A stretch of DNA of 63,508 nucleotides from Bacilli bacterium (GCA_045598145.1 JAZLLM010000001.1:1-63508); one strand, 5' to 3'; shown: positions 3,883 through 63,508, counted from the first letter of the stretch. Program-made: numbers and translations. The notes: generated by a model not told the origin, from the letters alone.

Positions 3883-3976
3883 TATTTGTTTACGACTATA
3901 TTATATCATTTATTAATAATCAAATAAATAGAATTTTTATAAGTCTATTTTTGTTCTTTTCTTTTTAATGATAAAA

Positions 3977-3985
3977 TGGTATAAT
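3977..3985 (+). promoter_or_regulatory. Extended -10 element (TGGTATAAT), likely rnj promoter
   Basis: TGnTATAAT lies 26 nt upstream of the rnj ATG. An AAAGGGG SD follows. Confidence 0.45.
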
Positions 3986-4010
3986 TTTATTATCTAGAAA
4001 GGGGCCCTCT

Positions 4011-8421: not shown

Positions 8422-8775
8422 TTATTTATTCTCTTCTTTCATTCTAATCTCTCTTAAAATGGCTTCAATTCTTTCACCTTGTTCATATGAATTATCATAT
8501 TTGAAGATTAAATCAGGAACTTTTTTAACTTGAATTCTTCTAGCAAGTAAAGTTCTTATAAATCCCTTTGCTTCCATAAAAACTTTAGATGTGTTTTCAA
8601 TTTGGTCTTTATTACCATAAACTGTATAATATACAGTAGCAATAGACAAATCATTAGTAAGATTTACATTTGTAATTGTAACAAATTTGATTCTTTCATC
8701 TTTGACATCACTAAAGATTATTGTGGAAAGTTCTTTTTCAATGATCTTTTCTAATCTTTCTTTTTTATAAGGCAT
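8422..8775 (-). CDS. rbfA: Ribosome-binding factor A
   Basis: Conserved RbfA sequence. Overlaps the infB stop, the canonical operon position. Confidence 0.9.
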
Positions 8776-11218
8776 TTTTAACCTCGTCCATCTTAAATAC
8801 TTCGATTACATCATCTTCTTTAATATCATTATAGTTTTCAATTGTAATACCGCATTCAAATCCTGTAGTAACTTCTTTAACATCATCTTTAAATCTCTTT
8901 AATGAAGAAAGCTTTCCAGTATATACAACAATACTATTTCTAATTAAACGTACATTAGATCCTCTTTCAATAACACCATTAGTTACATAGCAACCAGCAA
9001 TTGTACCAACTTTTGATACTTTATAAGTTTGTCTAACAATAGCTTCACCAATAACTTTTTCTTCATATACAGGGTCTAATAAACCTTTCATAGCAGCTTC
9101 AATATCTTCAAGTAATTTATAAATGATATCGTAATATCTTACTTCAATACCTTTTTCTTTAGCTAAATCTATAATCTTTGATGATGATCTAACATTAAAT
9201 GCAATAATAATTGCTTTAGAAACGATAGCTAAAGAGATATCAGTTTCAGTGATAGCACCAACAGCACTTCTTACTACATTTACCTTTACACCTTCAACAT
9301 CTAATTTAGATAATGAACCTTGTAATGCTTCTAGTGAACCTTGAACATCACCTTTAATTAATAAGTTAAGTTCTTTAGAGTCGTCATTATTGAATAATGA
9401 TGCAAGAGAAACAGTATTTTTAGCTAATTCTTCATTAGCTTTTCTGTTTATTCTTTCTTCACAAATTAATCTTGCAGTCTTTTCATCACTAAATACCATG
9501 AATCTATCACCAGCATTAGGTACATCAACTAAACCACTAACTTCAACAGCTTTAGATGGAGATGCAACTTTAACAATCGACTTAGTTTCATCAGTCATAG
9601 ATCTAATCTTACCCCATGTATTACCTACAACGATAGGATCTCCGACTTTTAATGAACCATTTTTAACAAGTAATGTAGCTACAACACCTTTACCTTTATC
9701 AAGTTTTGCTTCTAATACTGTACCAATAGCAAGTCTATTAGGGTTTGCTTTATATTCATTCATTTCAGCAACTAATGTAACCATTTCAAGTAATTCATCA
9801 ACACCATCGCCTTTTAAAGCTGAAATAGGTACGAAAATTGTCTTTCCACCCCAATCTTCAGCTAATAAATCGTATTGAGCAAGCTCTTGTTTAACTCTAT
9901 CTGGATTAGCAGTAGGCTTATCCATCTTATTTACAGCTACAATAATAGGAACTCCAGCAGCTTTTGAGTGTTCAATAGCTTCTTTTGTTTGTGGCATAAC
10001 ACCATCATCTGCAGCTACTACTAAAATTACAATATCAGTGATGTTAGCACCACGAGCTCTCATTTCTGTGAATGCTGCATGTCCTGGTGTATCAATAAAT
10101 GTAATTAATTTACCATTTTTCTTTACTTGGTAGGCACCAATGTGTTGAGTAATACCTCCAGCTTCGCCTGCAGTTACTCTAGAATGTCTAATTGTATCAA
10201 GTAAAGTAGTTTTTCCGTGGTCAACATGACCCATTATAGTAACAATAGCAGGTCTTTCTACTAAATCTTTAGGATCATCTTCAATATCCATCTCTTCAAA
10301 CTTAGTAATATCGCTATTAATTTCGTTTTTAAGTTCATATCCACAGTCTTCAACTATTAATTCTACTACATCACGCTCTAAAACATCGCTTGCATTAGCG
10401 AAATATCCTAACATAACAAGCTTTTTAACGATCTCACCAATGCCTCTACCTAGTGCATCAGCTACTTTTGCTACTGTCATACCCTCTGTATAATAGATAA
10501 TTTTCTCATCTTGTTTCTTCTCAATAGGTACGTTAGCAGTTCTATCCTTAGTTTGTTTGTTATTTTGCTTCTTTTTAACGTTCTTAATACGGCTATATTG
10601 CTTATTATCTTGGCTAAAATCAGAGTATTTATCCTCATATTGACCTAGTTTTTCTAACTCTTTATTAGTTTCATCTTCTTCATTATAAACATCAGTATGT
10701 TTTTTAGAGTTAAATGATTGATTATTGCTATTTTTAGGGTTAGAATTTTGAGCTTTTTGGTCTTGATTTTGGCTTTGTGGTTTTGAAGCACTTTTTTGCT
10801 CATTTTCTTTAACTTTTTTAGTATCTAAATTGTTATTATTTTTAACTTCTTGTTTTTGATTATTTTTAGTATTATTTTCGTTATATTGCTTTTCTGAGTC
10901 TTTTGGAGCTATTTTTTGCTCTTTAGTTTTCGGAGTACTATTTTTTTCGTCCAAATTGGCCTTAAATTTGCCCTCAGATTGATTTTCGCCCTCAGAACGT
11001 TTATTTATTTCATTGTCTTGTTTCGTCGATTTCTTCGCCTTTATTGGTTTTATGTCTACTTTGAACAATTTTCCGAATTTTTTGACTATAGCGTCCTCTA
11101 CATCAGTTTCTGCATCAGCATTTTCAGTACCAATATTGTCTAACATTTGAACTATACGTTCAGTGGTAACATTTTGACCTTTTTCATTAAGAATTTCGAC
11201 TATTTCTTTTACTTTCAT
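8765..11218 (-). CDS. infB: Translation initiation factor IF-2
   Basis: G-domain motifs [17 protein letters not shown] and NKMD. Long K/N/Q-rich N-terminal region. Confidence 0.97.
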
Positions 11219-47968: not shown

Positions 47969-49273
47969 CTAAATTAACTTTCTATTATCAATTACTCGCT
48001 TAGATTTACCTTCACTTCTTTCGATAGATTTAGGTCCAACTAAATTTACTGTAGCACCAATACCTAATGTATCTCTAAGTTTGCTTTCGATATCTTTTGT
48101 TATTGTTTGAATTGATTTGATATCATCAAAGAAGAAAGAATCACTCATTTCTACTTTTATTTCTAATGTATCATTATTATTTACTCTATCAACGATAATT
48201 AAATAATTAGGTGTAATTCCTCCACCAACCTTAAGTAATACTTCCTCAATTTGTGATGGGAATACATTAACTCCTCTTATAATTAACATGTCATCGCTTC
48301 TACCTTGTGGTTTACACATTCTGACAGTTGTTCTTCCACATGGACATTCATCATATATTAATCTACCCAAGTCATGAGTTCTATATCTAATAACTGGAAA
48401 AGCTTCTTTTGTAATAGTAGTAAATACTAACTCTCCTAATTCACCTGGTTTAACAGGAATTCCAGTGTTAGGGTCAACCACTTCCACAATAAACATATCT
48501 TCATTAATATGCATTCCGTTTTGATATTCACATTCATATGCGACACCAGGTCCCATAACTTCAGATAATCCATAAATATCATATGCTTTAATATTTAAAC
48601 TTTTTTCGATATATTTGCGCATTTCTTCAGTCCAAGGTTCAGCACCTAATACTGCCACCTTTAATTTGGAGTCGTTTATTAATCCTCTTGAATTAATTTC
48701 TTCAGATAAATGCATTGCATATGATGGAGTTGCACATAATGCGGTAGAACCAAAATCGATCATTGTCTGTATTTGTCTATTAGTATTACCTGTAGATGAA
48801 GGTATAGTTGTAGCACCTAGCTTCATTGCACCGTCATTAGCTCCTAAACCGCCAGTAAATAATCCATACCCAAAACAAATTTGGATAAAATCATCTTTGC
48901 TAATACCAGCTGCGCTATACGCTCTTGCTACACAATCACTCCACATATCGATATCGTTTTTTGAATATCCTACTACTATTTGCTTTCCTGTTGTACCACT
49001 AGATGCGTGCAACCTTACAACATCAGTCATTGGTATAGCAAATAAACCATAAGGATAATTATCTCTTAAATCAGATTTATAAGAAAATGGAAGTTTAGTT
49101 ATATCTTCTATTCCTTTAATGTCTTCTGGTTTTAGGTTTAATTCATCCATTCTTTGCTTAAATAGTTTAACATTATTATACATCCTTTTGACTTGCCAAA
49201 TTAATCTTTCACTTTGAAGTTTCTTAAGCTCATCTTTAGGCATGCATTCATATTCTTTTTGATATATAGCCAT
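47969..49273 (-). CDS. paaK: Phenylacetate-CoA ligase family protein (PaaK / F390-synthetase-like)
   Basis: SSGTTGKQ motif. 434 aa. Substrate unverified. Confidence 0.85.
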   Translation of the reverse strand: MAIYQKEYECMPKDELKKLQSERLIWQVKRMYNNVKLFKQRMDELNLKPEDIKGIEDITKLPFSYKSDLRDNYPYGLFAIPMTDVVRLHASSGTTGKQIVVGYSKNDIDMWSDCVARAYSAAGISKDDFIQICFGYGLFTGGLGANDGAMKLGATTIPSSTGNTNRQIQTMIDFGSTALCATPSYAMHLSEEINSRGLINDSKLKVAVLGAEPWTEEMRKYIEKSLNIKAYDIYGLSEVMGPGVAYECEYQNGMHINEDMFIVEVVDPNTGIPVKPGELGELVFTTITKEAFPVIRYRTHDLGRLIYDECPCGRTTVRMCKPQGRSDDMLIIRGVNVFPSQIEEVLLKVGGGITPNYLIIVDRVNNNDTLEIKVEMSDSFFFDDIKSIQTITKDIESKLRDTLGIGATVNLVGPKSIERSEGKSKRVIDNRKLI

Positions 49274-49284
49274 ATAAAACCTAT

Positions 49285-49854
49285 TTATTTTAAATTATAT
49301 CCTAAATCAAATGCTTTTAGATTGATATCTAATAATTTAGCAGGAACAATATTTTTAATTACATCAATCCAAACATCGTATTTGATACCACTTTGTTTTG
49401 CATATACACCAATCAAACTAACATTTACAGCTTTAGCGTTACCTGCTTCTTTTGCAAGGCTTAATGCGTCAACATCAATTACATTTACCATTTCTTTTAA
49501 TTTAGAAATGATATCTGTTGGATAAGTTGTTTGTCCTGTAATAACAGGCATTGGGTCAATTTTTTGTGTATTAACAATTATTGTACCATTTTTCTTTAAA
49601 TATGGAAGTGCACGATATGCTTCTAATTCTTCAAAAGCGAAAATTATATCTGCTTCACCTTTATCCATTATTGGTGAAAATACCTTATCTCCAAATTTAA
49701 CATATGTGATTACAGAACCACCTCTTTGGCTCATACCATGAACTTCTGATACTTTTACATCATAACCTAAACTAATAGCAGTATTACCTAAAATACGACT
49801 TGCAAGTAATGTACCTTGGCCACCAACGCCAACTATCATAATATTAGTGTTCAT
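49285..49854 (-). CDS. iorB: Indolepyruvate:ferredoxin oxidoreductase subunit beta
   Basis: GVGGQGTLLAS motif. 189 aa. Follows iorA. Confidence 0.9.
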   Translation of the reverse strand: MNTNIMIVGVGGQGTLLASRILGNTAISLGYDVKVSEVHGMSQRGGSVITYVKFGDKVFSPIMDKGEADIIFAFEELEAYRALPYLKKNGTIIVNTQKIDPMPVITGQTTYPTDIISKLKEMVNVIDVDALSLAKEAGNAKAVNVSLIGVYAKQSGIKYDVWIDVIKNIVPAKLLDINLKAFDLGYNLK

Positions 49855-49864
49855 AGTATACCTC

Positions 49865-51598
49865 CTATTCTACCTTTGTAATAGCTTCAAATGGACATAC
49901 GTTAACACATAATCCACATCCATTACATTGATTAATGTCAATCTTAATAGATCCTTCTTTTAAAGAAATTGCAGGGCAACCCAATTTCATACATTGTTTA
50001 CATTTCTTACATTTATCTGTAACTAATGCTTTACCAACATATTTTACTGTTTTTAATAATGCGCAAGGTCTTTGTGCAATAATTAAAGATGGTTCATCTT
50101 TTTCTGTTTCTTCTTTAACAACACGCTCAAATTCTTTTGTATCAAATGGATCACATACTCTAATACTTTCGATGCCAATTGATTTAGCTAAGCCAATTAA
50201 ATTTAATTGCTTTGTTTCTTCTTTTCTTATAGTATAACCAGTAGTTGGATTATCTTGATGACCTGTCATACCAGTAATAGAATTATCTAAAATAATTACA
50301 GTATTGCAACCCTTATTATAAACGATATCAATTAATCCAGTAATTCCTGAATGTACGAATGTTGAATCACCAATTACTGATACTAATTTCTTATTAAACT
50401 CTTTTCCTCTTGCTTTAGCCATTCCAAATGCAGCTGATACTGATGCACCCATACAAATTGTTGTATCAACAGATGAAAGTGGAGCAGCAGAACCTAATGC
50501 ATAGCAACCGATATCTCCTGAAACAACTAAACCCAATTTTTTAAGTACATAGAATGTTCCTCTATGAGGACATCCAGGACATAATACAGGAGGACGATTT
50601 GGAATTACTTCATCTAATTCAAAATAATTATCTTCACTTATACCTAAAATGACTTTTTTAATCATCTTAGGTGTGTATTCACCTAACATTGTGAATGCTT
50701 CTTTTCCAATTACGTTGATTCCATTAACTTTTAAATGTTCTTCAATGAATGGATCTAGTTCTTCTAATACATAAAGTTTTTCACATTTATTAGCGAACTC
50801 TTTTAATGAATTAACTGGTAATGGATATACCATACCTAATTTAAAGTAATTAACTTTATCTCCTAATGCTTCATGAGCATACATATATGTAATACCATTA
50901 GTGATAACACCAATTTTGCTATTGTTATATTCAACTTTATTTAGCTCTGTTGTTTCAGCATATTCTGTTTCAGCTTTAAATCTATCTTCTACCATAACAT
51001 GCTTTTTAATTGCAAAAGCAGGTACCATTACATTTTTAACTACGTCTTTATTATAATCTTTTAATATATAATTTTCTTTTTCCTCTTCGCTAACTAAACT
51101 TTGTGAATGAGAGACTCTTGTAGATAAACGTACAAATACAGGTGTGTCAAATTTTTCACTCAATTCAAAAGCTTTTTTAACAAATTCTTTACATTCTTTG
51201 CTATCGCTTGGTTCTATCATAAGTGTTTTAGATGCTTTAGCATAATGACGTGAATCTTGCTCATTTTGACTTGAATGCATTCCAGGGTCATCAGCAACGC
51301 AAAATACTAAACCGCCATTTACACCTATATAACTAACTGTAAATAATGGGTCTGCCATTACATTCAATCCAACATGTTTCATACAAGCCATACTTCTTGC
51401 ACCAGCAATACTAGCACCAATTGCAACTTCTGCTGCTACCTTTTCGTTTGGAGCCCATTCAACATTTATATTTTCATATTTTACGATGTTTTCAGTTATT
51501 TCAGTACTTGGAGTACCTGGGTAACTTGATACAACCGTAACTCCGGCTTCGTATGCTCCTCTTGCAACAGCTTCATTTCCTAACATTAATTTTTTCAT
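49865..51598 (-). CDS. iorA: Indolepyruvate:ferredoxin oxidoreductase subunit alpha
   Basis: TPP motif GDSTFVHSG and C-terminal 2x[4Fe-4S] (CKKCKQC...CP, CNGCGLCVNVCP). ATG 51598 follows an AGGTGG SD; the track start is GTG 51610. Confidence 0.9.
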   Translation of the reverse strand: MKKLMLGNEAVARGAYEAGVTVVSSYPGTPSTEITENIVKYENINVEWAPNEKVAAEVAIGASIAGARSMACMKHVGLNVMADPLFTVSYIGVNGGLVFCVADDPGMHSSQNEQDSRHYAKASKTLMIEPSDSKECKEFVKKAFELSEKFDTPVFVRLSTRVSHSQSLVSEEEKENYILKDYNKDVVKNVMVPAFAIKKHVMVEDRFKAETEYAETTELNKVEYNNSKIGVITNGITYMYAHEALGDKVNYFKLGMVYPLPVNSLKEFANKCEKLYVLEELDPFIEEHLKVNGINVIGKEAFTMLGEYTPKMIKKVILGISEDNYFELDEVIPNRPPVLCPGCPHRGTFYVLKKLGLVVSGDIGCYALGSAAPLSSVDTTICMGASVSAAFGMAKARGKEFNKKLVSVIGDSTFVHSGITGLIDIVYNKGCNTVIILDNSITGMTGHQDNPTTGYTIRKEETKQLNLIGLAKSIGIESIRVCDPFDTKEFERVVKEETEKDEPSLIIAQRPCALLKTVKYVGKALVTDKCKKCKQCMKLGCPAISLKEGSIKIDINQCNGCGLCVNVCPFEAITKVE

Positions 51599-51634
51599 AT
51601 TATTTACCACCTATAAAACATTTAGTTTTTTACT

Positions 51635-52622: not shown

Positions 52623-53870
52623 TTAATTTATAGGATTATAAATTATACCCATAAATAATATAACATCATTTGAATCAGTAATATAATAAATAAAAGGTTT
52701 ATTTAAATTCATATATAAACATGGACTAGCTTCTTCTGCTTTGGCTCCACCAAATGTTATAGCTGCTGCTTTGGCTCCTTCTTCATCTAATTCGATACCG
52801 CAAATTTGATCAATATATTCAAAATATAATCTTTCATCGCTAATTTTGCTTAAATTACATTCATTTGCATCAAATAATGATTCCAATCCTAAATCAATTA
52901 AATTATCTCTTAATGTATATTTTAATTGATATTTAAATTTAGGCAGTGAATAATTAATTGATGTTTTTTCAAAATTAGTTTTACCAGCTAATAATAAATA
53001 AAATTGATCTTCTTTAAATATATCTTCTACTGTGTATCCTTCGTTTGGTAAAACATAGGTAATTTTATTGTTATTATTAAAATAATCGCAAGCTAAAGTA
53101 AAATGTTCTCCTAAAAAATATTCACCATAAATTTCATGATGCATGAAATCTGCGCTTACATCTCCATTATAACTATAGAAAGTAGAAGCATATGTATTAT
53201 TTTTTAAATACTTGCTTTGCCATTTGTTATTAAAATATATACTATTTACTAAAAATAAAACAACATCGGTTAAATCAAAATCGTCTTCTTTTACATTTAG
53301 AAAATCGAATGTATTATTATTCATCCATTTAAGAATATTTTTCTTTGTTTCAGAATCAAATGCTGCACGGAATATATCAGCTTTATAATCATTACATAAA
53401 GTATTTACATATTCATCTTTAAATGACATATTTTTATGTAGCCATATAGAATTAGCAATTCTAAGTTTTCCTCCATCATTATCATATTCATTATTCAAAA
53501 TGGTGTTTTTGATACCATTTCGCAAAGTATTTACATCACAATATAAAACATTGTTTAGCTCTGATAGAGTTACTCCATCTGCACCTTCAGCAATCATTGA
53601 AAGAGCAATAAGTAAACTAATTGGTGAGTATATTTGATTATTTTTCTTGTTGTTAAATATATTTAAAGATGTCTTATATGCAAAAGTATTAAATAGATTT
53701 ACATAATTTGCTTCAACATTATATTCTTCTTTTGCGCTTGCCTTATGCTCTACCTTATTTACTATTTCAAAATTCTTAGTTTCTTTAATTTTGTTGCTTG
53801 AACAAGAACATAAAGAAAAACTAAAAAATATGGTAAGTATAATTATTAAAAGTATTCTATTTATTTTCAT
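52623..53870 (-). CDS. Serpin-family protease inhibitor, lipoprotein-anchored
   Basis: Lipobox SFSLCSC. Hinge/RCL DEEGAKAAAITFGG..., then NKPFIYYI and the C-terminal LFMGIIYNP serpin signature. Confidence 0.88.
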   Translation of the reverse strand: MKINRILLIIILTIFFSFSLCSCSSNKIKETKNFEIVNKVEHKASAKEEYNVEANYVNLFNTFAYKTSLNIFNNKKNNQIYSPISLLIALSMIAEGADGVTLSELNNVLYCDVNTLRNGIKNTILNNEYDNDGGKLRIANSIWLHKNMSFKDEYVNTLCNDYKADIFRAAFDSETKKNILKWMNNNTFDFLNVKEDDFDLTDVVLFLVNSIYFNNKWQSKYLKNNTYASTFYSYNGDVSADFMHHEIYGEYFLGEHFTLACDYFNNNNKITYVLPNEGYTVEDIFKEDQFYLLLAGKTNFEKTSINYSLPKFKYQLKYTLRDNLIDLGLESLFDANECNLSKISDERLYFEYIDQICGIELDEEGAKAAAITFGGAKAEEASPCLYMNLNKPFIYYITDSNDVILFMGIIYNPIN

Positions 53871-54964: not shown

Positions 54965-55011
54965 CTATATTCATATAATAATACAACTATATAGTCAATA
55001 TAGTTTCAAAA

Positions 55012-55034
55012 AAGAGTGCAAAAAATGCACTCTT
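55012..55034 (-). terminator. Intrinsic terminator after the 381-aa lipoprotein gene
   Basis: AAGAGTGCA-ttttt-TGCACTCTT plus TTTT on the minus strand. Confidence 0.8.
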
Positions 55035-55038
55035 TTAT

Positions 55039-56184
55039 TTATTCAGGTATTTCTACATCAAATGATGAGATATTGCTTGTAAATTCAGAAACTTGTTCAG
55101 AAATGCTCTCACCATTACCTGTTGCGAAAACTAATTTAGTTACTGGATCTTGATAGAATACCATTTTGTATTCGTAATCTGTTCCTTCTTCAAATGTAAT
55201 AACTAACTTATCACATGTTACACCAGCTATAACTTCTGTTCCTTCTTTAATACCTTTTAAAGCTTCTTTTGCTCTATTGAAAACAAATCCTAAATATTCA
55301 TTATATACTGAATCAGGTGTGAAATATTCAGATTCAAATGCTAATTCCCAATCTTGAGATTCATATTTTGTATATACTTTAGTTGAAGCGCTTGAGAAAT
55401 CAAAGAACAATTCAGTTCCGTTATTATAATATAATTTTGAACCAATCTTAATTGCAGTTACATCATCAAATACAATTTTAAAGTTTTCAGGAATATAATC
55501 AACTAAATCCATAGCTTCTGGTAATTTAATTGGTTCGATACCAACTTTTAATTCTTTTACTTCAAATCCTACACTAGCACTCTCTGTACCAACTTGGCTA
55601 CTTGCTTCCCACTTCATACAGATACCTGTTTCTTGATCTAAATAGTAAATATAGCCAAATGAATACATACCTAAATTGCTATATCCATATTGGTATTTGT
55701 CACAAGTTCTACCAGCAATTTTAGCAGTTCCGTCTTTTTTCATATTAGAACCATAACTGTAACCTAATAATAAATAAGTATTATAAATTGTTGTAAGTGA
55801 AGATAAAGAACCATCTGTATCAGTCATACGTCTTTCATAAGTCCATTCTCCATCAGAATAGTTCCAAATATAAATTAAATCATCTGAAACTCTAAAAGCA
55901 GCTCCGCTATCTCCAGAAATATACCATGAATATTCACCGCTAGCACCAATTGTCATTTCATCATCTTCACCAGAACCTTCAGAATCATAAACTACATAAA
56001 TAGCTTGATATCCTTTTTCAATTGCTAATTTTTTTAATTTTTCGTTTTCTTCATCATATGTAGTTTCTAGACTTTCTCCCTCTTCATCATCATTACCACC
56101 ATCGTCAATGATTCCGCTTAAATCACAAGCACACAATGAAAAAATCATTACTACACTCAAAAATAAATAAAATATTTTTTTCAT
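55039..56184 (-). CDS. Lipoprotein of unknown function with an acidic linker and two internally similar halves
   Basis: Lipobox IFSLCAC followed by a D/E-rich linker. Repeated motif IAGRTCDKYQY / IAGVTCDKLVI. A LolA/DUF4367-like fold is only a guess. Confidence 0.6.
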   Translation of the reverse strand: MKKIFYLFLSVVMIFSLCACDLSGIIDDGGNDDEEGESLETTYDEENEKLKKLAIEKGYQAIYVVYDSEGSGEDDEMTIGASGEYSWYISGDSGAAFRVSDDLIYIWNYSDGEWTYERRMTDTDGSLSSLTTIYNTYLLLGYSYGSNMKKDGTAKIAGRTCDKYQYGYSNLGMYSFGYIYYLDQETGICMKWEASSQVGTESASVGFEVKELKVGIEPIKLPEAMDLVDYIPENFKIVFDDVTAIKIGSKLYYNNGTELFFDFSSASTKVYTKYESQDWELAFESEYFTPDSVYNEYLGFVFNRAKEALKGIKEGTEVIAGVTCDKLVITFEEGTDYEYKMVFYQDPVTKLVFATGNGESISEQVSEFTSNISSFDVEIPE

Positions 56185-56270
56185 TTTTCTCCTCCCTTGA
56201 AATTTTATGGCAATTTCAAATACTGCTACATTTTAACATAATGCTATTATTATTTAAACAATAAATGTAC

Positions 56271-56298
56271 AAAAAAATAAAAAATGGCCATACGGCCA
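56271..56298 (-). terminator. Second (backup) terminator downstream of hydA
   Basis: Minus strand TGGCC-gtat-GGCCA followed by TTTTTTATTTTTTT. Confidence 0.5.
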
Positions 56299-56330
56299 CC
56301 ATAAATAATACATTATATTATTTGATATAA

Positions 56331-56358
56331 AAACAAAAAACTGAGGTTTCCCTCAGTT
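56331..56358 (-). terminator. Intrinsic terminator of the hydrogenase operon
   Basis: Minus strand AACTGAGG-gaaa-CCTCAGTT plus TTTTTGTTTTT, 12 nt after the hydA stop. Confidence 0.85.
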
Positions 56359-56369
56359 TATTGTTTATA

Positions 56370-58145
56370 TTATTTATTATACATTGTTCTCTTATGATAA
56401 TGAGTATGTAATAAATGATGTGCAAGTTCACTATTAGGTTCGCCTAAGAATTCCTTATATAAATCTAAAACGAATTGGTTTTCATGACTCTTTCTTAATT
56501 CATTACCTTTATCCATATCATATAAAACTTGTCCACGAATAGCTCTAATATCAATTGTTTCTGCTTCATATGAAGGGACGATTGGTTGACCACCGCCATT
56601 TACACATCCACCTGTACAACCCATAAATTCTACAAATGCATATTTACCTGGATTAGCTTCAATACGTTTCATCATTTCAGGAACGTTTACAGCACCATGA
56701 ACAACAGCAACTGTTAATTCATGACCAGCAATTGTCATAGTAGCTTCCTTAATGTCTTCAGTTACACCACGTAATGGAGTAATATCAACTTCTTTACTAT
56801 CAGTTTTTTCTAATACGTCTTTAACTGTTCTTAATGCAGCTTCCATAACACCACCTGTTGCACCGAAAATAACAGCAGCGCCAGTGTATTTAGCCATTGG
56901 AGAAGTTGGAGTATAATCTTCTAAAGCATTGAAATTAATATCTTCTTTCTTAATCCAACGAGCAAGTTCACGTGTAGTTAATACTACATCGATATCTCTT
57001 AATCCATCAGATTCCATTTCTTCTCTCTTAGCTTCTGATTTCTTACAAGAACATGGCATAATAGAAATAACTTTTACTTTATTAGGATCTAATCCTTGTT
57101 TCTTTGCATAATAATGTTTGATTAAAGCACCTTGAATTTGTTGAGGTGATTTAGTAGTTGATAGATGATCTAACATATTAGGATAATATGTTTCAATATA
57201 TCTAATCCAACCAGGTGAGCATGATGTAAACATTGGAAGAACAGCTTCTTCACCAGCTAAATATTTATTTAATCTACCAATAAATTCTGTGCCTTCTTCC
57301 ATGATAGTAACGTCAGCAGCAAAGTTAACGTCTGTAATATCATCAATACCTAATTTATTTAATGCAGCATAAATCTTGCCTTCGACATTTTCTCCACGTT
57401 TGTTACCAAATTCTTCGCCTAATGCAGCTCTAACAGCTGGAGCAATACATGCAACTGTATAGATATCTGGATTTTCAACATATGCTTGAGCTTCTTCAAT
57501 ACCATCTTTTTCTTTTAATGCGCCTGTAGGACAAGCTTGAATACATTTACCACAATAAATACATCCTGCATCTTCAATTGGATGGTTTAAAGCAGGTCCA
57601 ACAAAAGTTGATGAACCACGGAAGTTATAATTTAAAACTCCAGTTCCTGCTTGTTTTTGACAAGCACTAATACATCTTCCGCATAATACACACTTAGAAG
57701 AATCGATAACTAATGCATCGCCAATATTTGTAACTTGTTCTTTCTTAGAGAATACTGGGTCTTCGCCAATCTTATTATCAATATTAAATCTACGTAATAA
57801 TCTTAATAATTCACAATTATTTTCTCTAGGACATTTCCAACATTCAAATCTATGATTACCAGCAATTAATTGTAAGTTTTGTTTAACAGCACTTAATACT
57901 CTAGGAGTATTTGTTTTAACAACCATGCCATCATTAACTGTAACTGTACAAGAATTCTTTAATGTTCTAATTCCTTCAATTTCAACAACGCATAAACGAC
58001 ATGAAGAATTTTCATTTAAACCTTTTAAGAAGCAAAGACGTGGAATATCAACGCCTGCAGCACGTGCAGCTTCCATAACAGTATAATTACTAGGAACTTC
58101 TACTGTTTTACCATTAACAGTAACATTTACCATTTTCATTTCCAT
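56370..58145 (-). CDS. hydA: [FeFe] hydrogenase catalytic subunit (M3 architecture; HydA/HndD type) with variant H-cluster motifs
   Basis: N-terminal 2Fe-2S, His-ligated and 2x[4Fe-4S] domains. H-domain motifs are TSCSPGW (L1), MPCSCKKSE (L2) and EFMGCTGGCVNGGGQP (L3). Confidence 0.92.
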   Translation of the reverse strand: MEMKMVNVTVNGKTVEVPSNYTVMEAARAAGVDIPRLCFLKGLNENSSCRLCVVEIEGIRTLKNSCTVTVNDGMVVKTNTPRVLSAVKQNLQLIAGNHRFECWKCPRENNCELLRLLRRFNIDNKIGEDPVFSKKEQVTNIGDALVIDSSKCVLCGRCISACQKQAGTGVLNYNFRGSSTFVGPALNHPIEDAGCIYCGKCIQACPTGALKEKDGIEEAQAYVENPDIYTVACIAPAVRAALGEEFGNKRGENVEGKIYAALNKLGIDDITDVNFAADVTIMEEGTEFIGRLNKYLAGEEAVLPMFTSCSPGWIRYIETYYPNMLDHLSTTKSPQQIQGALIKHYYAKKQGLDPNKVKVISIMPCSCKKSEAKREEMESDGLRDIDVVLTTRELARWIKKEDINFNALEDYTPTSPMAKYTGAAVIFGATGGVMEAALRTVKDVLEKTDSKEVDITPLRGVTEDIKEATMTIAGHELTVAVVHGAVNVPEMMKRIEANPGKYAFVEFMGCTGGCVNGGGQPIVPSYEAETIDIRAIRGQVLYDMDKGNELRKSHENQFVLDLYKEFLGEPNSELAHHLLHTHYHKRTMYNK

Positions 58146-58156
58146 ATGTTTGCCTC

Positions 58157-59950
58157 CTATTTAGTAACAATTGCGCCCATCTTACAAGATGCTTTACATG
58201 CACCACATTTAATGCAGACAGAAGTATTGATTGAGTGTTTTTCTTTTAAGTTACCTGAAATAGCTCCAGCTGGACAATTACGTTTACATAATCCACAGCC
58301 TACACACTTATCAGTAATATAATATTTAATTAAAGCTTTACATGTACCAGCTGGGCAACGATGTTCAACAACATGAGCTACATATTCATCATAGAAGTTG
58401 TTTAAAGTTGATAATACTGGGTTTGGAGCAGTTTGACCTAATCCACATAATGCAGAGTCTTTAATAGTTTCAGCTAAATTCTTTAATTCATCTAAATCTT
58501 CCATTGTTCCTTTTCCGTCACAAATCTTATTTAGAATTTCAAGCATTCTCTTAGTTCCTTCACGGCATGGAGTACATTTACCACATGATTCATCAACTGT
58601 GAAATCTAAGAAGAATCTAGCGATGTCAACCATACAGTTGTCTTCATCCATTACAATCATACCACCTGAACCCATCATAGATCCAGCAGCTACTAAGTTA
58701 TCATAATCTATTGGAGTATCTAAGTGAGCTTCTGTTAAGCATCCTCCTGATGGTCCACCAGTTTGAACGGCTTTGAATTTCTTTCCTTTTGGAATGCCAC
58801 CACCGATATCAAAAATAATTTCTCTTAAAGTTGTTCCCATAGGAATTTCAACTAAACCAGTGTTATTAATTTTTCCACCTAATGCGAATACTTTAGTACC
58901 TTTAGATTTTTCAGTACCCATTGTTCTAAACCAATCAGCACCTTTATAAATAATTTGAGCAACGTTTGCTAATGTTTCAACGTTATTAATTACAGTAGGA
59001 CGACCCCATAAACCTTGATTTGCTGGGAAAGGAGGTTTATTTCTTGGCATACCTCTTTCACCTTCGATTGAAGCCATTAATGCTGTTTCTTCACCACAAA
59101 CGAATGCACCAGCACCTAATCTAACTTCTAGGTCGAATGAGAATTCAGTACCAAAAATATTCTTACCTAATAATCCATATTCATAAGCTTGTTTGATTGC
59201 ACCTTCTAATCTTTCAACAGCTAGAGGGTATTCAGCTCTAACATACACATAACCTTGGCTAGCACCAATTGCATAACCAGCAATAGCTAAACCTTCGATT
59301 ACAGCATGTGGGTCACCTTCTAATACAGCACGGTCCATGAATGCACCTGGGTCACCTTCGTCAGCGTTACATACTACGTATGATTGTCCGCCACGATTCT
59401 TAGCTGTTAATTCCCATTTCTTACCAGTAGGGAAGCCAGCTCCACCTCTACCACGTAATCCTGCTTTTAATACTTCAGCGATTACATCATCAGGTGTCAT
59501 TTCTGTTAAAGCTTTACCTAAAGCTTGGTATCCATCACGGCCAATATATTCTGTGATATCAGTAGGATTAATAATACCGCAGTTTCTTAATGCAACACGT
59601 TCTTGTTTTGCATAGAAATTCATTTCTCTAAATTGTTTAATTTTAGCTTTATCTTCAGCTGTTACTTCTTTGTATTCTTTTCTTGCAACAGGTCTACCTT
59701 TTAAAATGTGTTCCTTACAAATTTCTTCTACATCATTAACAGTCATTTTAGCATAGAAAGTTTCATCAGGATAAACAATTACAACTGGTCCCCTTTCACA
59801 TAATCCAAAACAACCACTTTGGAATACAGCTACTTCTTGAGATAAGCCTAATTCCTTAAGAACTTCATCAAATTTTTCTTTAATATCTTTTGAATGTGAT
59901 GACATACATCCTGTGCCACCGCAAACAACAATTTGGGTTCTAATTGACAT
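58157..59950 (-). CDS. hydB: NuoF-like flavoprotein subunit of the bifurcating hydrogenase (HydB/HndC)
   Basis: GRGGAGFPTGKKW (FMN/NADH site), an N-terminal thioredoxin-like 2Fe-2S domain and C-terminal 2x[4Fe-4S]. Confidence 0.93.
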   Translation of the reverse strand: MSIRTQIVVCGGTGCMSSHSKDIKEKFDEVLKELGLSQEVAVFQSGCFGLCERGPVVIVYPDETFYAKMTVNDVEEICKEHILKGRPVARKEYKEVTAEDKAKIKQFREMNFYAKQERVALRNCGIINPTDITEYIGRDGYQALGKALTEMTPDDVIAEVLKAGLRGRGGAGFPTGKKWELTAKNRGGQSYVVCNADEGDPGAFMDRAVLEGDPHAVIEGLAIAGYAIGASQGYVYVRAEYPLAVERLEGAIKQAYEYGLLGKNIFGTEFSFDLEVRLGAGAFVCGEETALMASIEGERGMPRNKPPFPANQGLWGRPTVINNVETLANVAQIIYKGADWFRTMGTEKSKGTKVFALGGKINNTGLVEIPMGTTLREIIFDIGGGIPKGKKFKAVQTGGPSGGCLTEAHLDTPIDYDNLVAAGSMMGSGGMIVMDEDNCMVDIARFFLDFTVDESCGKCTPCREGTKRMLEILNKICDGKGTMEDLDELKNLAETIKDSALCGLGQTAPNPVLSTLNNFYDEYVAHVVEHRCPAGTCKALIKYYITDKCVGCGLCKRNCPAGAISGNLKEKHSINTSVCIKCGACKASCKMGAIVTK

Positions 59951-59961
59951 TGTTTTCCTCC

Positions 59962-60330
59962 TTATTTCTTAAAGTTTTCTATTAACATTTCTTTAATTGG
60001 TTGTCCACCAATGATATGTTGTTCAATAATTTTTGAAACATGTTCTTCATGAACCTTACAATAAGTATATCTTGTTCCATCTGGATCATATACTTCTACA
60101 ATTGGTTCAAGAGCACATTCGCCCATACAACCAACTTGTGTAATTGTTACATTTGTTAAATCGCGTTTTTCAACTTCACTTACTAAACCATTTAATACAG
60201 GTCTTGCACCAGCAGTGATTCCACAAGTAGCCATACCAACAACGATTCTATAACCATTTTTTACATCACGTAGGCTCATCTTCTTTGCAGCAGCTTCTCT
60301 GATTTGCTTTAATTCTTCTAAAGATTTCAT
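59962..60330 (-). CDS. Thioredoxin-like [2Fe-2S] ferredoxin (HndB/HydD-like)
   Basis: 122 aa with the Cys pattern ATCGI...GCMGEC. Confidence 0.8.
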   Translation of the reverse strand: MKSLEELKQIREAAAKKMSLRDVKNGYRIVVGMATCGITAGARPVLNGLVSEVEKRDLTNVTITQVGCMGECALEPIVEVYDPDGTRYTYCKVHEEHVSKIIEQHIIGGQPIKEMLIENFKK

Positions 60331-60360
60331 ATTTCCTCCTAATATATTTTTTTCTATAAT

Positions 60361-60900
60361 TTAATCTAATTCATTTAAACCCTCTTGCACAAAGTCTTTA
60401 AACCAACTCATTAGCATCGGATCTTTTATAGATACTCCATCAAGTATCTCTTTAATTTCTTTGGTATCAAATTCAAATGTTTTATTATTTTTGATGTGTT
60501 TATATTTGATATCCGCATTCTCTTCATTAATTATTAACAAATATAAAGTATCAATTAAATTACCAAATGGTGGTAAATCAATACTACTAAGTTTAAAAGT
60601 AGCACATAAAGAAGTACCTTTGTCTACTTCTGACTCTATTTTTAAACCGCCTTCACATAGTTCACATAACTCTTTAAACAAAGGAAGACCTAGTCCAACA
60701 TGTCTTGTTGTTCTAGTTGTGAAAAAAGGACTAGTAACTTTTTCTAATACTTCTTTGCTCATACCTTTACCATCATCAATTAGGGTAATTGTAAGCAAAT
60801 CAGATACCTTATCTTCATTAATAATCAAATCGATATTCTTCGCATTTGCCTTTAGAGAATTTTGTGTGATATCTAATATGTATAACGATAATTCATTCAT
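60361..60900 (-). CDS. Stand-alone GHKL (histidine-kinase-like) ATPase domain protein
   Basis: N-box ITQNSLKANA, G1 DDGKGM and G2 GLGLPL. No DHp/His phosphoacceptor domain. Confidence 0.8.
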   Translation of the reverse strand: MNELSLYILDITQNSLKANAKNIDLIINEDKVSDLLTITLIDDGKGMSKEVLEKVTSPFFTTRTTRHVGLGLPLFKELCELCEGGLKIESEVDKGTSLCATFKLSSIDLPPFGNLIDTLYLLIINEENADIKYKHIKNNKTFEFDTKEIKEILDGVSIKDPMLMSWFKDFVQEGLNELD

Positions 60901-60914
60901 ATAAGAAACCTATT

Positions 60915-61613
60915 CTATTCATGTAACCACTTTTTAAATGAATTAAAAGATAAATCATCTAAATCCATGTACTGCTCTTTTTCATGAATTAATTCCATAC
61001 TATGAGCATCTGAATTATTTATTACCTTGTAATTTTTTAAATAAGGGTATTTATCATATAAATCATTTATGATACTTAAATCATAAACTTCAATTCCATC
61101 AACATCAAAAATACTAAAATCACTATAAAAATCTAATATACCACTATTTCTTCTATCAATATGAGCAGGAATAATAATGCCATTGTTTGCTTTAACTACA
61201 TCAATAACTTCCTTAAAACTATATTTAATTTTTTGATTAGTCCAATATGGAATTTCTTGTAAAGGCTCATCATACTCATCACAAATAATTTGTTTATCAG
61301 GCGGGATGATAGTTTTATCTAAACATTCATCTATTATTTCATCTAGTTTCATTAATTCATCATATTTTTCAAAATAAGCTAAAACGTGAAATCCTTCTTT
61401 TACGGTAATTTCCATACCATAAAGCATAAAGAAATCATAACTTTCTCTAAGCATATCTAAAGTTTTCCATTGTTTTGCACAATTATGATCACATATCGAT
61501 ATCATATTTAACTCTTTTAACATACACATGTTTAATATGTTGTTTGGAGTTTGAAGTTCATCTGCACAAGCAGACAATATCGAATGAATATGAATATCAT
61601 AATAAACTTTCAT
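60915..61613 (-). CDS. PHP-domain metal-dependent phosphoesterase
   Basis: N-terminal YDIHIHS...CADE, internal CDHN and C-terminal NSDAH, the typical PHP His/Asp set. Confidence 0.8.
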   Translation of the reverse strand: MKVYYDIHIHSILSACADELQTPNNILNMCMLKELNMISICDHNCAKQWKTLDMLRESYDFFMLYGMEITVKEGFHVLAYFEKYDELMKLDEIIDECLDKTIIPPDKQIICDEYDEPLQEIPYWTNQKIKYSFKEVIDVVKANNGIIIPAHIDRRNSGILDFYSDFSIFDVDGIEVYDLSIINDLYDKYPYLKNYKVINNSDAHSMELIHEKEQYMDLDDLSFNSFKKWLHE

Positions 61614-61618
61614 AAATA

Positions 61619-61960
61619 TTATCCTTGCATCTTTTTAATTAAATAAGCGGTATCAAATGTAGTGAATTTTGAAGTAAAAACTGGAACTCCTTCTTCATTA
61701 GCTTTCAATATAATATCTTCACTAGGTATTACATTTTCGCAAAATACTACAGCACTCATATCAAGTAGGCTAGCAACTGCTATTGCATTCATTGAATTCA
61801 ATACAGTAAGTAAGATTGTGTTAGGTTCATGAATATGCCCCATAACCCAACTTAATAAATCACAAGTATAAAAATTATCTATTTCTTTATCTAATGATTC
61901 ATTATTACTTAAAAGTTTAATGCCATCAATATTTTCTAAATCTTTAACATAAACTTTCAT
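61619..61960 (-). CDS. DRTGG-like domain protein
   Basis: 113 aa. Similar in layout to the 62387-62755 product (CDLLSWVMG...LLTV...EEGVPVF). Confidence 0.6.
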   Translation of the reverse strand: MKVYVKDLENIDGIKLLSNNESLDKEIDNFYTCDLLSWVMGHIHEPNTILLTVLNSMNAIAVASLLDMSAVVFCENVIPSEDIILKANEEGVPVFTSKFTTFDTAYLIKKMQG

Positions 61961-61963
61961 AAA

Positions 61964-62380
61964 TTACCTCAATTTAATAAATATTCTAACTGTAGTTCCG
62001 GCTGAACTAGTTTCAACTTCAAGTTTATCACTTGCTTTTTTTATATTTGGAAATCCCATTCCAGCTCCAAACCCATTTTCTCTATCCTGTTTAGATGCAG
62101 TTGACCAACCTTCTTTCATTGCATCATCAATTGATGCAATTCCAGGTCCACAGTCAATGAATTCAAGTATAAGGTTGTCATCATCAGTGAAGATTACATT
62201 ACAAAAACCACCATAAGAATGTATTACCACATTTATTTCAGCTTCATAACTTGCAATTGCAACTCTTCTGACAATTTGTCTATCAACACCCATTTGATTA
62301 AGTTTTTTCTTAATCTTACTTGATACATATCCTGCATTCTCTAAATCCATCGAGAATATTCTATATACTTCTTTTTCCAC
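61964..62380 (-). CDS. RsbW/SpoIIAB-like GHKL serine-kinase-type ATPase
   Basis: 138 aa. E..N..IHS N-box, DCGPGI and GFGAGMGFPN G-boxes. Confidence 0.75.
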   Translation of the reverse strand: MEKEVYRIFSMDLENAGYVSSKIKKKLNQMGVDRQIVRRVAIASYEAEINVVIHSYGGFCNVIFTDDDNLILEFIDCGPGIASIDDAMKEGWSTASKQDRENGFGAGMGFPNIKKASDKLEVETSSAGTTVRIFIKLR

Positions 62381-62386
62381 TATTTA

Positions 62387-62755
62387 TCAGTTTACTCCTC
62401 TAATACCAGCTTCATACAACTTTCCACAAGATGAAAACATTGAATTACTAGTAACTAATAAAGTTATACCTGCTTCTCTAGCAGCATCATATACATTATC
62501 ATTAGGCTTTTTGCCTCTTACGATAAGAACTGCACCAAAATCTAGCATTTCAGCAGTTCTGATGCTTTGACAAGTTACTAAACCTGTAAGAAGAATTCCT
62601 TTTTCAAAGAATTCATCTGGAGCAGTTCTAAGTAACATTAAAGCATCACTCATCATATCTGATCCAAACGCAAATTCTACGTCACGATTCTCATCATAAA
62701 GGTCTGGAGTTAAGATTTTAGCATCTAATAAACTTACTAAATCTTTTAATTTCAT
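62387..62755 (-). CDS. DRTGG-domain protein
   Basis: 122 aa. GSDMMSDALM...ILLTGL...AVLIVRG...AREAGITLLVT pattern. Confidence 0.7.
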   Translation of the reverse strand: MKLKDLVSLLDAKILTPDLYDENRDVEFAFGSDMMSDALMLLRTAPDEFFEKGILLTGLVTCQSIRTAEMLDFGAVLIVRGKKPNDNVYDAAREAGITLLVTSNSMFSSCGKLYEAGIRGVN

Positions 62756-62756
62756 A

Positions 62757-63239
62757 TTATTTTAATAATTCTTCTAATGCTTTCTTTGCCATTGTTGGTG
62801 TTGAAGAACCATAAACCTTACCGTCAACTGTAAATACTGGAGCTAAACCGCATGCACCGATGCATCTTGTAGCTTCAATTGTAAATTTACCATCCTCAGT
62901 AGTTTGTCCAGGTTGAATCTTTAAAGCTTTAGTGAATTCATCTAAAACTAATTGGCTACCTCTAACGAAACATGCAGTACCTAAACATACACCAATAATG
63001 TGTTCACCTTTAGGTTCAATTGAAAAACGTGAATAGAAAGTTACAACGCCGTTTACTTTAGATACACTTTCATCCAATTCTTTAGCGATAATTTTTTGAA
63101 CTTCGATTGGAACACAACCAAAAATTCTTTGAGCGTCATGTAATGTTGGCATTAAAGGACCAGGTTTTTGCTTATGTTCTTTAATACATTCCATTAATTC
63201 TGCTAGTTGTTCTTCTTTTAAAACAAATTTTGCACCCAT
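62757..63239 (-). CDS. hydC: NuoE-like [2Fe-2S] subunit of the bifurcating hydrogenase (HydC/HndA)
   Basis: CLGTAC...CIGACGLAP thioredoxin-like 2Fe-2S motif. First gene of the operon. Confidence 0.92.
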   Translation of the reverse strand: MGAKFVLKEEQLAELMECIKEHKQKPGPLMPTLHDAQRIFGCVPIEVQKIIAKELDESVSKVNGVVTFYSRFSIEPKGEHIIGVCLGTACFVRGSQLVLDEFTKALKIQPGQTTEDGKFTIEATRCIGACGLAPVFTVDGKVYGSSTPTMAKKALEELLK

Positions 63240-63271
63240 AATTTTTCTCCTTTTTTTAAAACGCTATTTTT

Positions 63272-63280
63272 ATTATAACA
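63272..63280 (-). promoter_or_regulatory. Extended -10 (TGTTATAAT) for the hydrogenase operon
   Basis: Minus strand TGTTATAAT lies about 33 nt upstream of the hydC ATG. An AAAGGAGAA SD follows. Confidence 0.5.
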
Positions 63281-63380
63281 TTATTTATTAATAAAATAAA
63301 TATCTTTATATAAAAATTTATAAGACATTTTTTATTGATTTTTAAGGCAAAATAAAAAATCCGAGAAAAACTGAAATGAT

Positions 63381-63430
63381 AAACTATTAGTAGACACTAA
63401 AAAAACATTAGTGTTTATTAATAGTTTTTT
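63381..63430 (+). repeat. 20-bp inverted repeat forming a plus-strand hairpin plus T-run (terminator/attenuator- or operator-like)
   Basis: AAACTATTAGTAGACACTAA-aaaaaca-TTAGTGTTTATTAATAGTTT then TTTTT. Both mismatches are G-U pairs only when read as plus-strand RNA. Confidence 0.5.
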
Positions 63431-63455
63431 ATTATGTTATACTATTAGAGTGGTA

Positions 63456-63471
63456 GAACCCCTAGGGGTTC
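63456..63471. repeat. Perfect 16-bp GC-rich palindrome just upstream of an SD
   Basis: GAACCCCTAGGGGTTC followed directly by GGGAAGGAG and ATG 63487. Confidence 0.6.
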
Positions 63472-63486
63472 GGGAAGGAGAAAATA

Positions 63487-63508
63487 ATGGGAAGACCAAA
63501 AGGTGGTA
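63487..63508 (+). CDS. Unidentified CDS, first 7 codons only (MGRPKGG...)
   Basis: ATG lies 7 nt after a GGAAGGAG SD. Runs off the right edge. Confidence 0.4.

Follow-up and report, generated by a model that had tools for sequence, protein, structure and literature searches.

A DRTGG/GHKL/PHP cassette kept without HydS inside a bifurcating [FeFe] hydrogenase operon: a possible ATP-driven protein switch

The operon and its five-gene cassette

In a 63,508-nucleotide (nt) stretch of DNA from a Bacilli bacterium (GCA_045598145.1, JAZLLM010000001.1:1-63508), which is called the window here, five small genes lie inside the operon of a bifurcating [FeFe] hydrogenase. These five genes, referred to as the cassette, and their relationship to HydS, a putative H2-sensing [FeFe] hydrogenase, are the subject of this report. 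The listing of open reading frames (ORFs) places nine co-directional genes on the minus strand at 56370-63239, with hydC as the first and hydA as the last, and the gaps in and around the cassette amount to 1, 6, 3, 5, 14 and 30 nt. The position of the cassette between hydC and hydD-hydB-hydA, with gaps of 1-30 nt, had been proposed in a first-pass annotation of the window and is borne out by this listing.

The operon begins with hydC (63239..62757), which encodes a NuoE-like 2Fe-2S thioredoxin-like subunit (PF01257, 158 bits) and whose stop codon is separated by 1 nt from the start of the cassette. The cassette consists of DRTGG1, a stand-alone DRTGG-like protein of 122 amino acids (aa; 62755..62387); GHKL1, a SpoIIAB/RsbW-like GHKL ATPase of 138 aa (62380..61964); DRTGG2, a DRTGG protein of 113 aa (61960..61619); a PHP-family metal-dependent phosphoesterase of 232 aa (61613..60915); and GHKL2, a stand-alone histidine kinase (HK)-type ATP-binding domain of 179 aa (60900..60361), all on the minus strand. 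DRTGG1 and GHKL1, and likewise DRTGG2 and PHP, are thus adjacent gene pairs, and GHKL2 is located directly upstream of a hydD-like gene for a thioredoxin-like 2Fe-2S ferredoxin (60330..59962; PF01257, 24.9 bits; NF041612, 3.7e-11). This is followed on the same strand by hydB, encoding the NuoF-like FMN/NADH subunit (59950..58157; Complex1_51K, 167 bits; NADH_4Fe-4S, 122 bits), and by hydA, encoding the catalytic [FeFe] hydrogenase of the bifurcating type (58145..56370; Fe_hyd_lg_C, 302 bits), which scores 742 bits against the NCBIfam model NF040763 (group A6), slightly under the model cut-off. Embedded in hydC...hydA, the block is therefore next to a NuoE/NuoF-type redox complex.

Upstream of hydC, a promoter-like AT-rich leader (63240..63330, minus strand) contains a TGnTATAAT-like -10 element and the ribosome-binding site AAAGGAG, and a terminator scan places two terminator-like hairpins at the end of the operon (56359-56338 and 56300-56283, minus strand). 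No terminators were found inside the operon by a consensus scan, no Rex operator was found upstream of hydC, and the region 55000-63508 gave no Rfam match or leader RNA. The GC content has no break that would hint at recent import. As had been claimed beforehand, the Pfam search found no DNA-binding, receiver or sigma-factor genes in the operon.

Domain assignments of the five proteins

Searches against Pfam, which the first-pass annotation had suggested as a check, and against NCBIfam sustain all five of its domain assignments, those of DRTGG1 and PHP by way of family and homologue evidence. GHKL1 matches HATPase_c_2 (35.8 bits) and the SpoIIAB model TIGR01925 (2.9e-11), and a profile search of the PDB returned SpoIIAB (1TIL, 2e-10), then RsbW (5e-3), as its closest solved relatives. 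Its N, G1 and G2 boxes are invariant (E46, N50, D76xGxG80 and G103xGxGxG109), and judged by these motifs GHKL1 is a putative Ser/Thr kinase or ATP switch.

In GHKL2, only the catalytic and ATP-binding (CA) domain of HKs is matched by Pfam (HATPase_c, 58 bits); the components of a canonical two-component system are absent, with no DHp/HisKA domain in GHKL2 and no Response_reg domain in the operon. Invariant residues comprise N14, D42xGxG46, F59 and G69xG71. The His of a 'HIDR' motif was considered as phospho-acceptor and dropped, because it is Ser in the window protein and not invariant. The AlphaFold2 model (predicted local distance difference test score, pLDDT, 88) combines a Bergerat fold with a C-terminal alpha/beta subdomain of ~75 residues; with Foldseek it matches HK CA domains over ~105 residues, and the ATPase N-domains of MutL, GyrB and TopoVI-B over ~175-185 residues with a query-based template modelling (TM) score, TMq, of 0.5-0.59. 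Weak matches to the mitochondrial kinases BCKDK and PDK occur with both the profile and the model. The GHKL2 family is large, with more than 7000 clusters at 90% identity, and one of its occurrences has been encountered before: GHKL2 sits at the same operon position as Tte0891 of Caldanaerobacter, where the operon reads hydC-tte0891-hydD-hydB-hydA and Tte0891 was called hypothetical (PMC4694547). The proteins identified in the purified, active HydABCD complex did not include Tte0891 (PMC4694547), and GHKL2 is therefore probably not a stable HydABCD subunit.

Both small alpha/beta proteins belong to the DRTGG group. DRTGG2 exceeds the gathering score of PF07085 with 31.9 bits; DRTGG1 reaches 18.7 bits, under the gathering score of 25.2, and its family profile matches the DRTGG part of 3L2B (CBS-pyrophosphatase of C. 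perfringens, 1.4e-5) and 2IOJ (AF_1212, 8.5e-3). The 'GDR' motif is replaced by 'TGL' in DRTGG1. Invariant residues are D33, S36, D37, G58, D72, R80 and K82 in DRTGG1, and D34, S37, T52, N58 and A87 in DRTGG2. The DRTGG families match the regulatory part of CBS-pyrophosphatase and the N-domain of HPr kinase, with a weak likeness to the PucR sensor domain, and Pfam and profile searches gave no STAS match. A SPOR domain N-terminal to DRTGG in one homologue (P0447) is uninformative on contacts within the cassette.

Although the PHP protein of the window itself has no Pfam match at a cut-off of E<=0.01, PF02811 is found in its homologues. The metal ligands that make up the HxH, D/H, E, H and DxH motifs of the superfamily's (beta/alpha)7 barrel are conserved, namely H8, H10, D42, H43, E68, H151, D202 and H204. 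The AlphaFold2 model (pLDDT 97.5) superposes on the PHP domain of EndoQ with a TM score of 0.75 in Foldseek, and EndoQ, TrpH/RNase AM, TM0559 and PolC-PHP are nearest by sequence profile and fold.

The cassette in other genomes

One genome per species was scanned with the PHP alignment. At least 558 species proved to have relatives, of which the 80 best loci were analysed, so that the proportions given here describe a sample obtained through PHP and not genome-wide frequencies. The five families form one evolutionary block, all of them being present as such in 77 of the 80 loci. Two arrangements can be distinguished. The window-like arrangement without an extra gene occurs in 43/80 loci, from genomes labelled Bacilli, Izemoplasmatales, Acholeplasmatales or Mycoplasmatota, and the complete nine-gene operon is found in 31 of these 43; the cultured strains zrk7 and Peloplasma aerotolerans belong to this clade. 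In the other 37/80, which are 37/37 of the loci outside the window's clade, an extra gene of ~1.3 kb is located exactly between GHKL1 and DRTGG2.

The intervening gene is that of the group D (M2e) putative sensory [FeFe] hydrogenase HydS, as its sequence features indicate. Pfam assigns to the encoded protein, which measures ~415-470 aa in the 37 loci, two Fer4 domains, Fe_hyd_lg_C and a PF04060 cluster at the C-terminus; a PAS domain is absent. In a comparison of 25 sequences, neither the four cysteines of the H-cluster nor the four C-terminal ones vary, and the position preceding the L1 Cys, occupied in group A enzymes by the proton-relay Cys, is variable. The published description of M2e/TamHydS agrees with this cysteine pattern, including the non-conserved proton-relay Cys (PMC8163306). 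In the reverse direction, starting from HydS homologues, the same flanks were found in 3/3 loci (L084, L085 and L086). Furthermore, in six model organisms the M2e gene lies five genes ahead of hydB (for example TTE0887 versus TTE0892-0894 and Cthe_0335 versus 0340-0342) (PMC3561251), a spacing that fits the order HydS-DRTGG2-PHP-hydC-GHKL2-hydD-hydB-hydA. Because the 37/37 and the 3/3 HydS loci share the same flanks, the cassette of the window corresponds to the HydS module minus HydS. The first-pass annotation had linked such cassettes to HydS only 'sometimes', which these counts contradict.

In the window, the HydS site of the other loci corresponds, by locus comparison, to the 3-nt junction between GHKL1 and DRTGG2 (61961..61963, minus strand), and the block thus lacks the M2e hydrogenase. 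A tblastn search with nine HydS proteins found no HydS in the 63.5-kb window and matched hydA only, in line with the earlier statement that no HydS-type sensor is present here. A few positions are conserved solely in the HydS-containing loci. One of them is position 50 of DRTGG2 (window 61811-61813), where these loci have a conserved Trp and the HydS-less clade has a conserved Leu; such positions are candidate contacts of HydS, to be taken as a lead only.

Individual loci deviate in detail. In L084, two additional small ORFs (8445-9266; 182 and 59 aa, no Pfam match) lie between HydS and DRTGG2, and a PAS-GGDEF gene is immediately upstream of DRTGG1; in L085, an AsnC-type regulator adjoins the block. 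The HydS of L062 (Thomasclavelia; 3793-4956) is short, with 387 aa and ~25% identity to other HydS, and it retains the cluster cysteines.

The surroundings of the HydS-containing blocks vary in a limited way. Five blocks lie inside a ten-gene hydC...hydA operon (L062, L064, L068, L073 and L077), ten are divergent from hydC-GHKL2-hydD-hydB(-hydA), five are directly upstream of it and two are downstream of hydC-hydD-hydB-hydA. In ten further loci (L043, L026, L039, L040, L045, L046, L047, L061, L078 and L080) the block ends in GHKL2 and is followed by rnfC and rnfD, the full rnfCDGEAB being confirmed by Pfam only in L043 (8751-14549). Among the remaining five, DRTGG1-GHKL1-HydS-DRTGG2-PHP alone are visible in the available sequence of three, and in L048 and L049 the block is accompanied by GHKL2, but neither a hyd nor an rnf operon was recognised next to it. 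A distant version, L081 (5540-16744), comprises DRTGG, HATPase_c_2, HydS, a 111-aa protein, PHP and GHKL2; it precedes NuoE/NuoF-like genes and a [NiFe] hydrogenase (FlpD, Oxidored_q6, HoxH), with HdrA/CCG-type genes upstream. Finally, free-standing five-gene operons without HydS (L018, 3143-5500; L082, L083, 6781-9189) are found among housekeeping genes, flanked by IF-2/RbfA on one side and close to the genes of ribosomal L31, fumarase and malic enzyme; the locus sequence examined contains neither hydrogenase nor rnf genes.

The recurrence of the cassette with hydABC in other genomes, which had been stated in the first-pass annotation, is confirmed by this neighbourhood analysis. Its description as an insertion into the operon is mistaken: the arrangement is old and shared by some 43 species, and it exists in a ten-gene version with HydS in five loci. 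Since ten loci have rnfC and rnfD instead, the cassette is not specific to hydrogenase operons, and what the usual neighbours have in common is a NuoE/NuoF-type module (HydC/HydB, RnfC).

The median junction is -4 nt for both DRTGG1 to GHKL1 and DRTGG2 to PHP in 77 loci, with lengths taken from longest-ORF starts, by which overlap is somewhat overestimated. The junctions of GHKL2 with hydC and hydD (hydC-GHKL2-hydD) are similarly tight. Such packing is compatible with co-translation, as had been proposed. We read the cassette as a composite of two coupled pairs, DRTGG1-GHKL1 and DRTGG2-PHP, and an enzyme-associated ATPase of the Tte0891 type, GHKL2, which moves with hydC/hydD or rnfC.

Selection on the HydS-less cassette

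A neighbour-joining tree was built from concatenated DRTGG1, GHKL1, PHP and GHKL2 of 75 taxa. Loci with and without HydS form two clean groups separated by a single state change, and L062, with its ten-gene operon, is basal on the HydS-containing side. The distant L081 also has HydS at the same place in the block. As to the direction of the change, we infer that HydS was lost rather than gained, and the short HydS of L062 could be an intermediate toward loss.

In the HydS-less loci the other five families are intact. Active-site and catalytic motifs are conserved in both groups, within-group identities are equal, and the ratio of nonsynonymous to synonymous substitutions (dN/dS) in close HydS-less pairs is 0.03-0.20, like that of the hydrogenase genes and of HydS-containing pairs. 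The HydS-less cassette is under purifying selection. Because the motifs are intact, dN/dS is low, identities are equal and free-standing operons exist, the five proteins are a functional unit that does not depend on HydS.

These data also speak against the idea that the cassette is a decaying remnant of HydS loss or a foreign or defence island, which is close to refuted: HydS is indeed absent and the GC content of the cassette is slightly under that of hydA and hydB, but the dN/dS values match those of the hyd genes, the catalytic motifs and the synteny are conserved throughout a deep clade of about 43 species, and PADLOC found no defence-system matches, on which ground a mobile or defence island was rejected.

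A possible ATP-driven switch and its alternatives

Our preferred reading, to which we give a probability of roughly 0.45, is that the cassette encodes the conserved signalling partners of HydS, the putative H2 sensor, and that this set is kept without HydS inside a HydABC(D) operon and acts as an ATP-driven switch. Such a switch would have no DNA-binding output and would control NuoEF-type redox complexes. The SpoIIAB-like GHKL1 would bind, and probably phosphorylate, a DRTGG protein, with DRTGG1 as its translationally coupled partner, and PHP, together with its own coupled partner DRTGG2, would reverse the modification. GHKL2, which travels with hydC/hydD or rnfC, would be the output that binds or modifies the NuoEF-type module and thereby tunes enzyme activity or assembly post-translationally. 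In loci with HydS, H2 would shift the kinase-hydrolase balance to one side. The organism of the window would need another input, for which the simplest candidates are ATP/ADP or a ligand, either a nucleotide or a redox compound, sensed by the DRTGG domains.

Several observations weigh against this reading, in which phosphorylation, ATP hydrolysis and protein contacts of the five proteins are predicted activities. No gene fusions informative on contacts were found in the 80 loci, the top GHKL2 and HydS homologues and 150 DRTGG1 representatives. The PHP protein most closely resembles, by profile and predicted fold, nucleotide and nucleic-acid phosphoesterases rather than the protein-tyrosine phosphatases YwqE/CpsB: 3QY6 ranks 40th in Foldseek (E 8.5e-3, TM 0.40), and the PHP profile gave no sequence match to CpsB/YwqE in the PDB profile search. 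The role of protein phosphatase assigned to it in the first-pass annotation is thereby weakened. The invariant Ser of the DRTGG proteins was dropped as a candidate phosphosite: its counterpart in AF_1212 belongs to the 'AMS' motif, which is a feature of the whole family. GHKL2 may, judging by its model, be a clamp or dimerising ATPase instead of a kinase, since over its full length it can be superposed on dimerising ATPases of the MutL/GyrB type no less well than on the CA domains of kinases. The cassette has no STAS domain, PP2C phosphatase or sigma factor, and the analogy to partner switching is therefore purely functional. An unlinked HydS may exist elsewhere in the genome, of which the 63.5 kb of the window were covered. 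Lastly, the support from other genomes comes from a sample seeded with PHP.

The first-pass annotation had already proposed partner switching, and part of this proposal stands: GHKL1 is a GHKL Ser-kinase-like protein with N, G1 and G2 boxes, but STAS, PP2C and a linked sigma factor are missing. The STAS-like substrate role that it gave to the DRTGG proteins is a putative one. A bolder version of our own, which we consider rather doubtful, would make the cassette a new, self-sufficient ATP-driven partner switch, in which DRTGG takes the place of STAS, PHP that of PP2C, and an HK-fold ATPase provides the output. It would gate HydABC, Rnf and other NuoEF-type complexes post-translationally, with HydS as an optional H2 input. 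If true, HydABC would have its first described regulation at the protein level, and the signalling of a PAS-less HydS would be explained. We know of no report of HydABC or Rnf phosphorylation.

Two alternatives, both of which appear unlikely, deserve closer consideration. In the first, GHKL1 would sequester an unlinked sigma or transcription factor that is released by DRTGG, so that hyd or rnf transcription, and not enzyme activity, would be controlled. The best named relatives of GHKL1 are indeed the anti-sigma factors SpoIIAB (anti-sigma F) and RsbW, and a regulator embedded in its own target operon is compatible with autoregulation. A transcription-factor gene is also found near TamHydS in T. 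mathranii (PMC8163306), and in L085 an AsnC-type regulator is adjacent to the block. However, no sigma or DNA-binding gene is conserved beside the block in 80+ loci, the neighbouring regulators vary between genomes, and the coupling of GHKL2 to hydC/hydD or rnfC points to the enzyme itself.

The second alternative dispenses with protein phosphorylation and is centred on nucleotides: the DRTGG proteins would bind a (di)nucleotide, PHP would hydrolyse a nucleotide signal or process RNA, and the two GHKL proteins would be dimerising switches. Ligands of this kind, nucleotides or dinucleotides, are bound by the regulatory parts of CBS-pyrophosphatase and Pta, which contain DRTGG. The resemblance of the cassette's DRTGG families to the CBS-pyrophosphatase part, to the HPr kinase N-domain and, weakly, to the PucR sensor domain is consistent with such binding. 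The kinship of PHP with EndoQ, RNase AM/TrpH, the pAp-phosphatase type and the PolC exonuclease domain points the same way, as does the alignment of the full-length GHKL2 model with MutL, GyrB and TopoVI-B. Against this, both GHKL proteins have kinase-type N/G1/(F)/G2 boxes and protein kinases as their nearest sequence kin, the block has no conserved gene for a nucleotide cyclase or synthetase, and the chemistry of PHP, a three-metal phosphomonoesterase site, fits a phosphoprotein substrate equally well.

It is very improbable that the five proteins are accessory, assembly or extra HydABC subunits, for instance a set that serves the NuoEF/FMN module as an ATP-dependent chaperone or in cofactor handling. 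Co-transcription and translational coupling with hydC/hydD, the restriction of redox associations to FMN/NuoF-type complexes (HydB, RnfC and the NuoF of L081) and the MutL/Hsp90-type fold likeness of GHKL2 would agree with such a role. The active HydABCD complex, however, was purified without Tte0891 being identified (PMC4694547), and the HydABC enzymes of T. maritima, A. woodii and T. kivui are described with three to four subunits (PMC6288185). Moreover, the cassette is also found far from any hydrogenase or rnf gene, and the tight link to a sensor-type hydrogenase favours signalling.

Significance for HydS signalling

Clusters of this kind are known but undissected. In the literature on the surroundings of M2e genes, only 'kinases' or a 'histidine kinase-like ATPase' are named (PMC8163306, PMC3561251), the papers on TamHydS noting that a histidine-kinase-like ATPase flanks it (PMC8163306). 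Searches of the open-access full-text literature found nothing relevant on DRTGG or PHP together with hydrogenase and no functional study of the DRTGG/PHP genes; within this scope, the DRTGG and PHP members and their pairing, the contexts with Rnf and [NiFe] hydrogenase and the clade without the sensor seem to be undescribed. Group D 'sensory' hydrogenases have been the object of years of spectroscopy, and according to a 2026 paper on TamHydS their interaction partners and signalling route are still unidentified, finding the partners being termed critical. The present analysis supplies five co-conserved candidates and shows how they group: the SpoIIAB-like ATPase goes with DRTGG1, PHP with DRTGG2, and the NuoEF-type enzyme with GHKL2. 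The problem of signalling by a HydS without PAS is thereby narrowed to a few protein pairs that can be tested. The sensor-less version is under purifying selection in a large clade, and the module therefore has a function of its own; as a natural variant with cultured strains, it is also a simpler system for biochemistry. Since bifurcating hydrogenases and Rnf set the balance of H2, NADH and ferredoxin in fermenters of guts, rumens and sediments and are targets in the engineering of biofuel strains, a post-translational layer of control would be of practical interest.

Other features near the operon

Approximately 140 nt upstream of the hydC start, an inverted repeat with a 20-pair stem and a 7-nt loop (63381-63427) is terminator-like on the plus strand only and could be a bidirectional terminator of the neighbouring gene or a regulatory hairpin. 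Right after the hyd terminators, a 381-aa protein without Pfam match is encoded at 55039-56184 on the minus strand; it has a lipoprotein-like N-terminus and is acidic and repeat-rich. A few kb downstream of the operon, the minus strand encodes a serpin of 415 aa (PF00079, 3.4e-60; 52623-53870), which seemed to us unexpected in a Bacilli lineage with small genomes. At 47969-51610, also on the minus strand, an indolepyruvate/2-oxoacid:ferredoxin oxidoreductase-like pair, composed of proteins of 581 aa (POR_N, TPP_enzyme_C, Fer4) and 189 aa (POR), is located beside an AMP-binding ligase and probably supplies the hydrogenase with reduced ferredoxin.

Relation to known systems

The cassette can be compared with four groups of known systems. 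With the modules SpoIIAB-SpoIIAA-SpoIIE and RsbW-RsbV-RsbU/P it shares a small GHKL Ser-kinase-like protein with N, G1 and G2 boxes, small alpha/beta partners, an opposing metal-dependent hydrolase and the lack of receiver and DHp domains. In the window, however, the partners are DRTGG instead of STAS proteins and the hydrolase is PHP instead of PP2C, a second HK-type ATPase, GHKL2, is present, and there is no linked sigma factor, an unlinked target being possible.

The mitochondrial kinases PDK and BCKDK offer a second comparison. They are GHKL Ser kinases which, with PP2C phosphatases, switch large dehydrogenase complexes. Like GHKL2, they have an HK-fold ATPase without a His acceptor that is dedicated to a redox enzyme complex; GHKL2 differs by the lack of the lipoyl-binding N-domain, and the similarity is weak.

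A third group is that of the PAS-containing HydS proteins of group C (M2f), such as those of the R. albus hydS cluster with its Ser/Thr kinase and phosphatase and of hfsABCD in Thermoanaerobacterium. From the work on R. albus and hfs, the group C systems reportedly use a PP2C-type phosphatase. Here too, a sensor-type [FeFe] hydrogenase occurs with kinase-like and phosphatase-like proteins near fermentation redox genes, and a regulatory role of hfsB is supported by genetic evidence (PMC5707799). The PAS domain is fused in group C, in contrast to the block of the window, which is PAS-free, contains DRTGG and PHP, and has no hydrogenase-like sensor.

The fourth group is made up of the group D (M2e) clusters beside A1 TR(M3) HydABC, namely TTE0885-0894 of Caldanaerobacter subterraneus, Tmath_0862-0869 with TamHydS, Cthe_0335-0342 and Athe_1292-1299. 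The window differs from these in that HydS is missing and in that its block lies inside the hyd operon instead of upstream of or divergent from it, but the five accessory families are the same, occur in the same order and stand beside a hydC-(GHKL2)-hydD-hydB-hydA operon of the same type.

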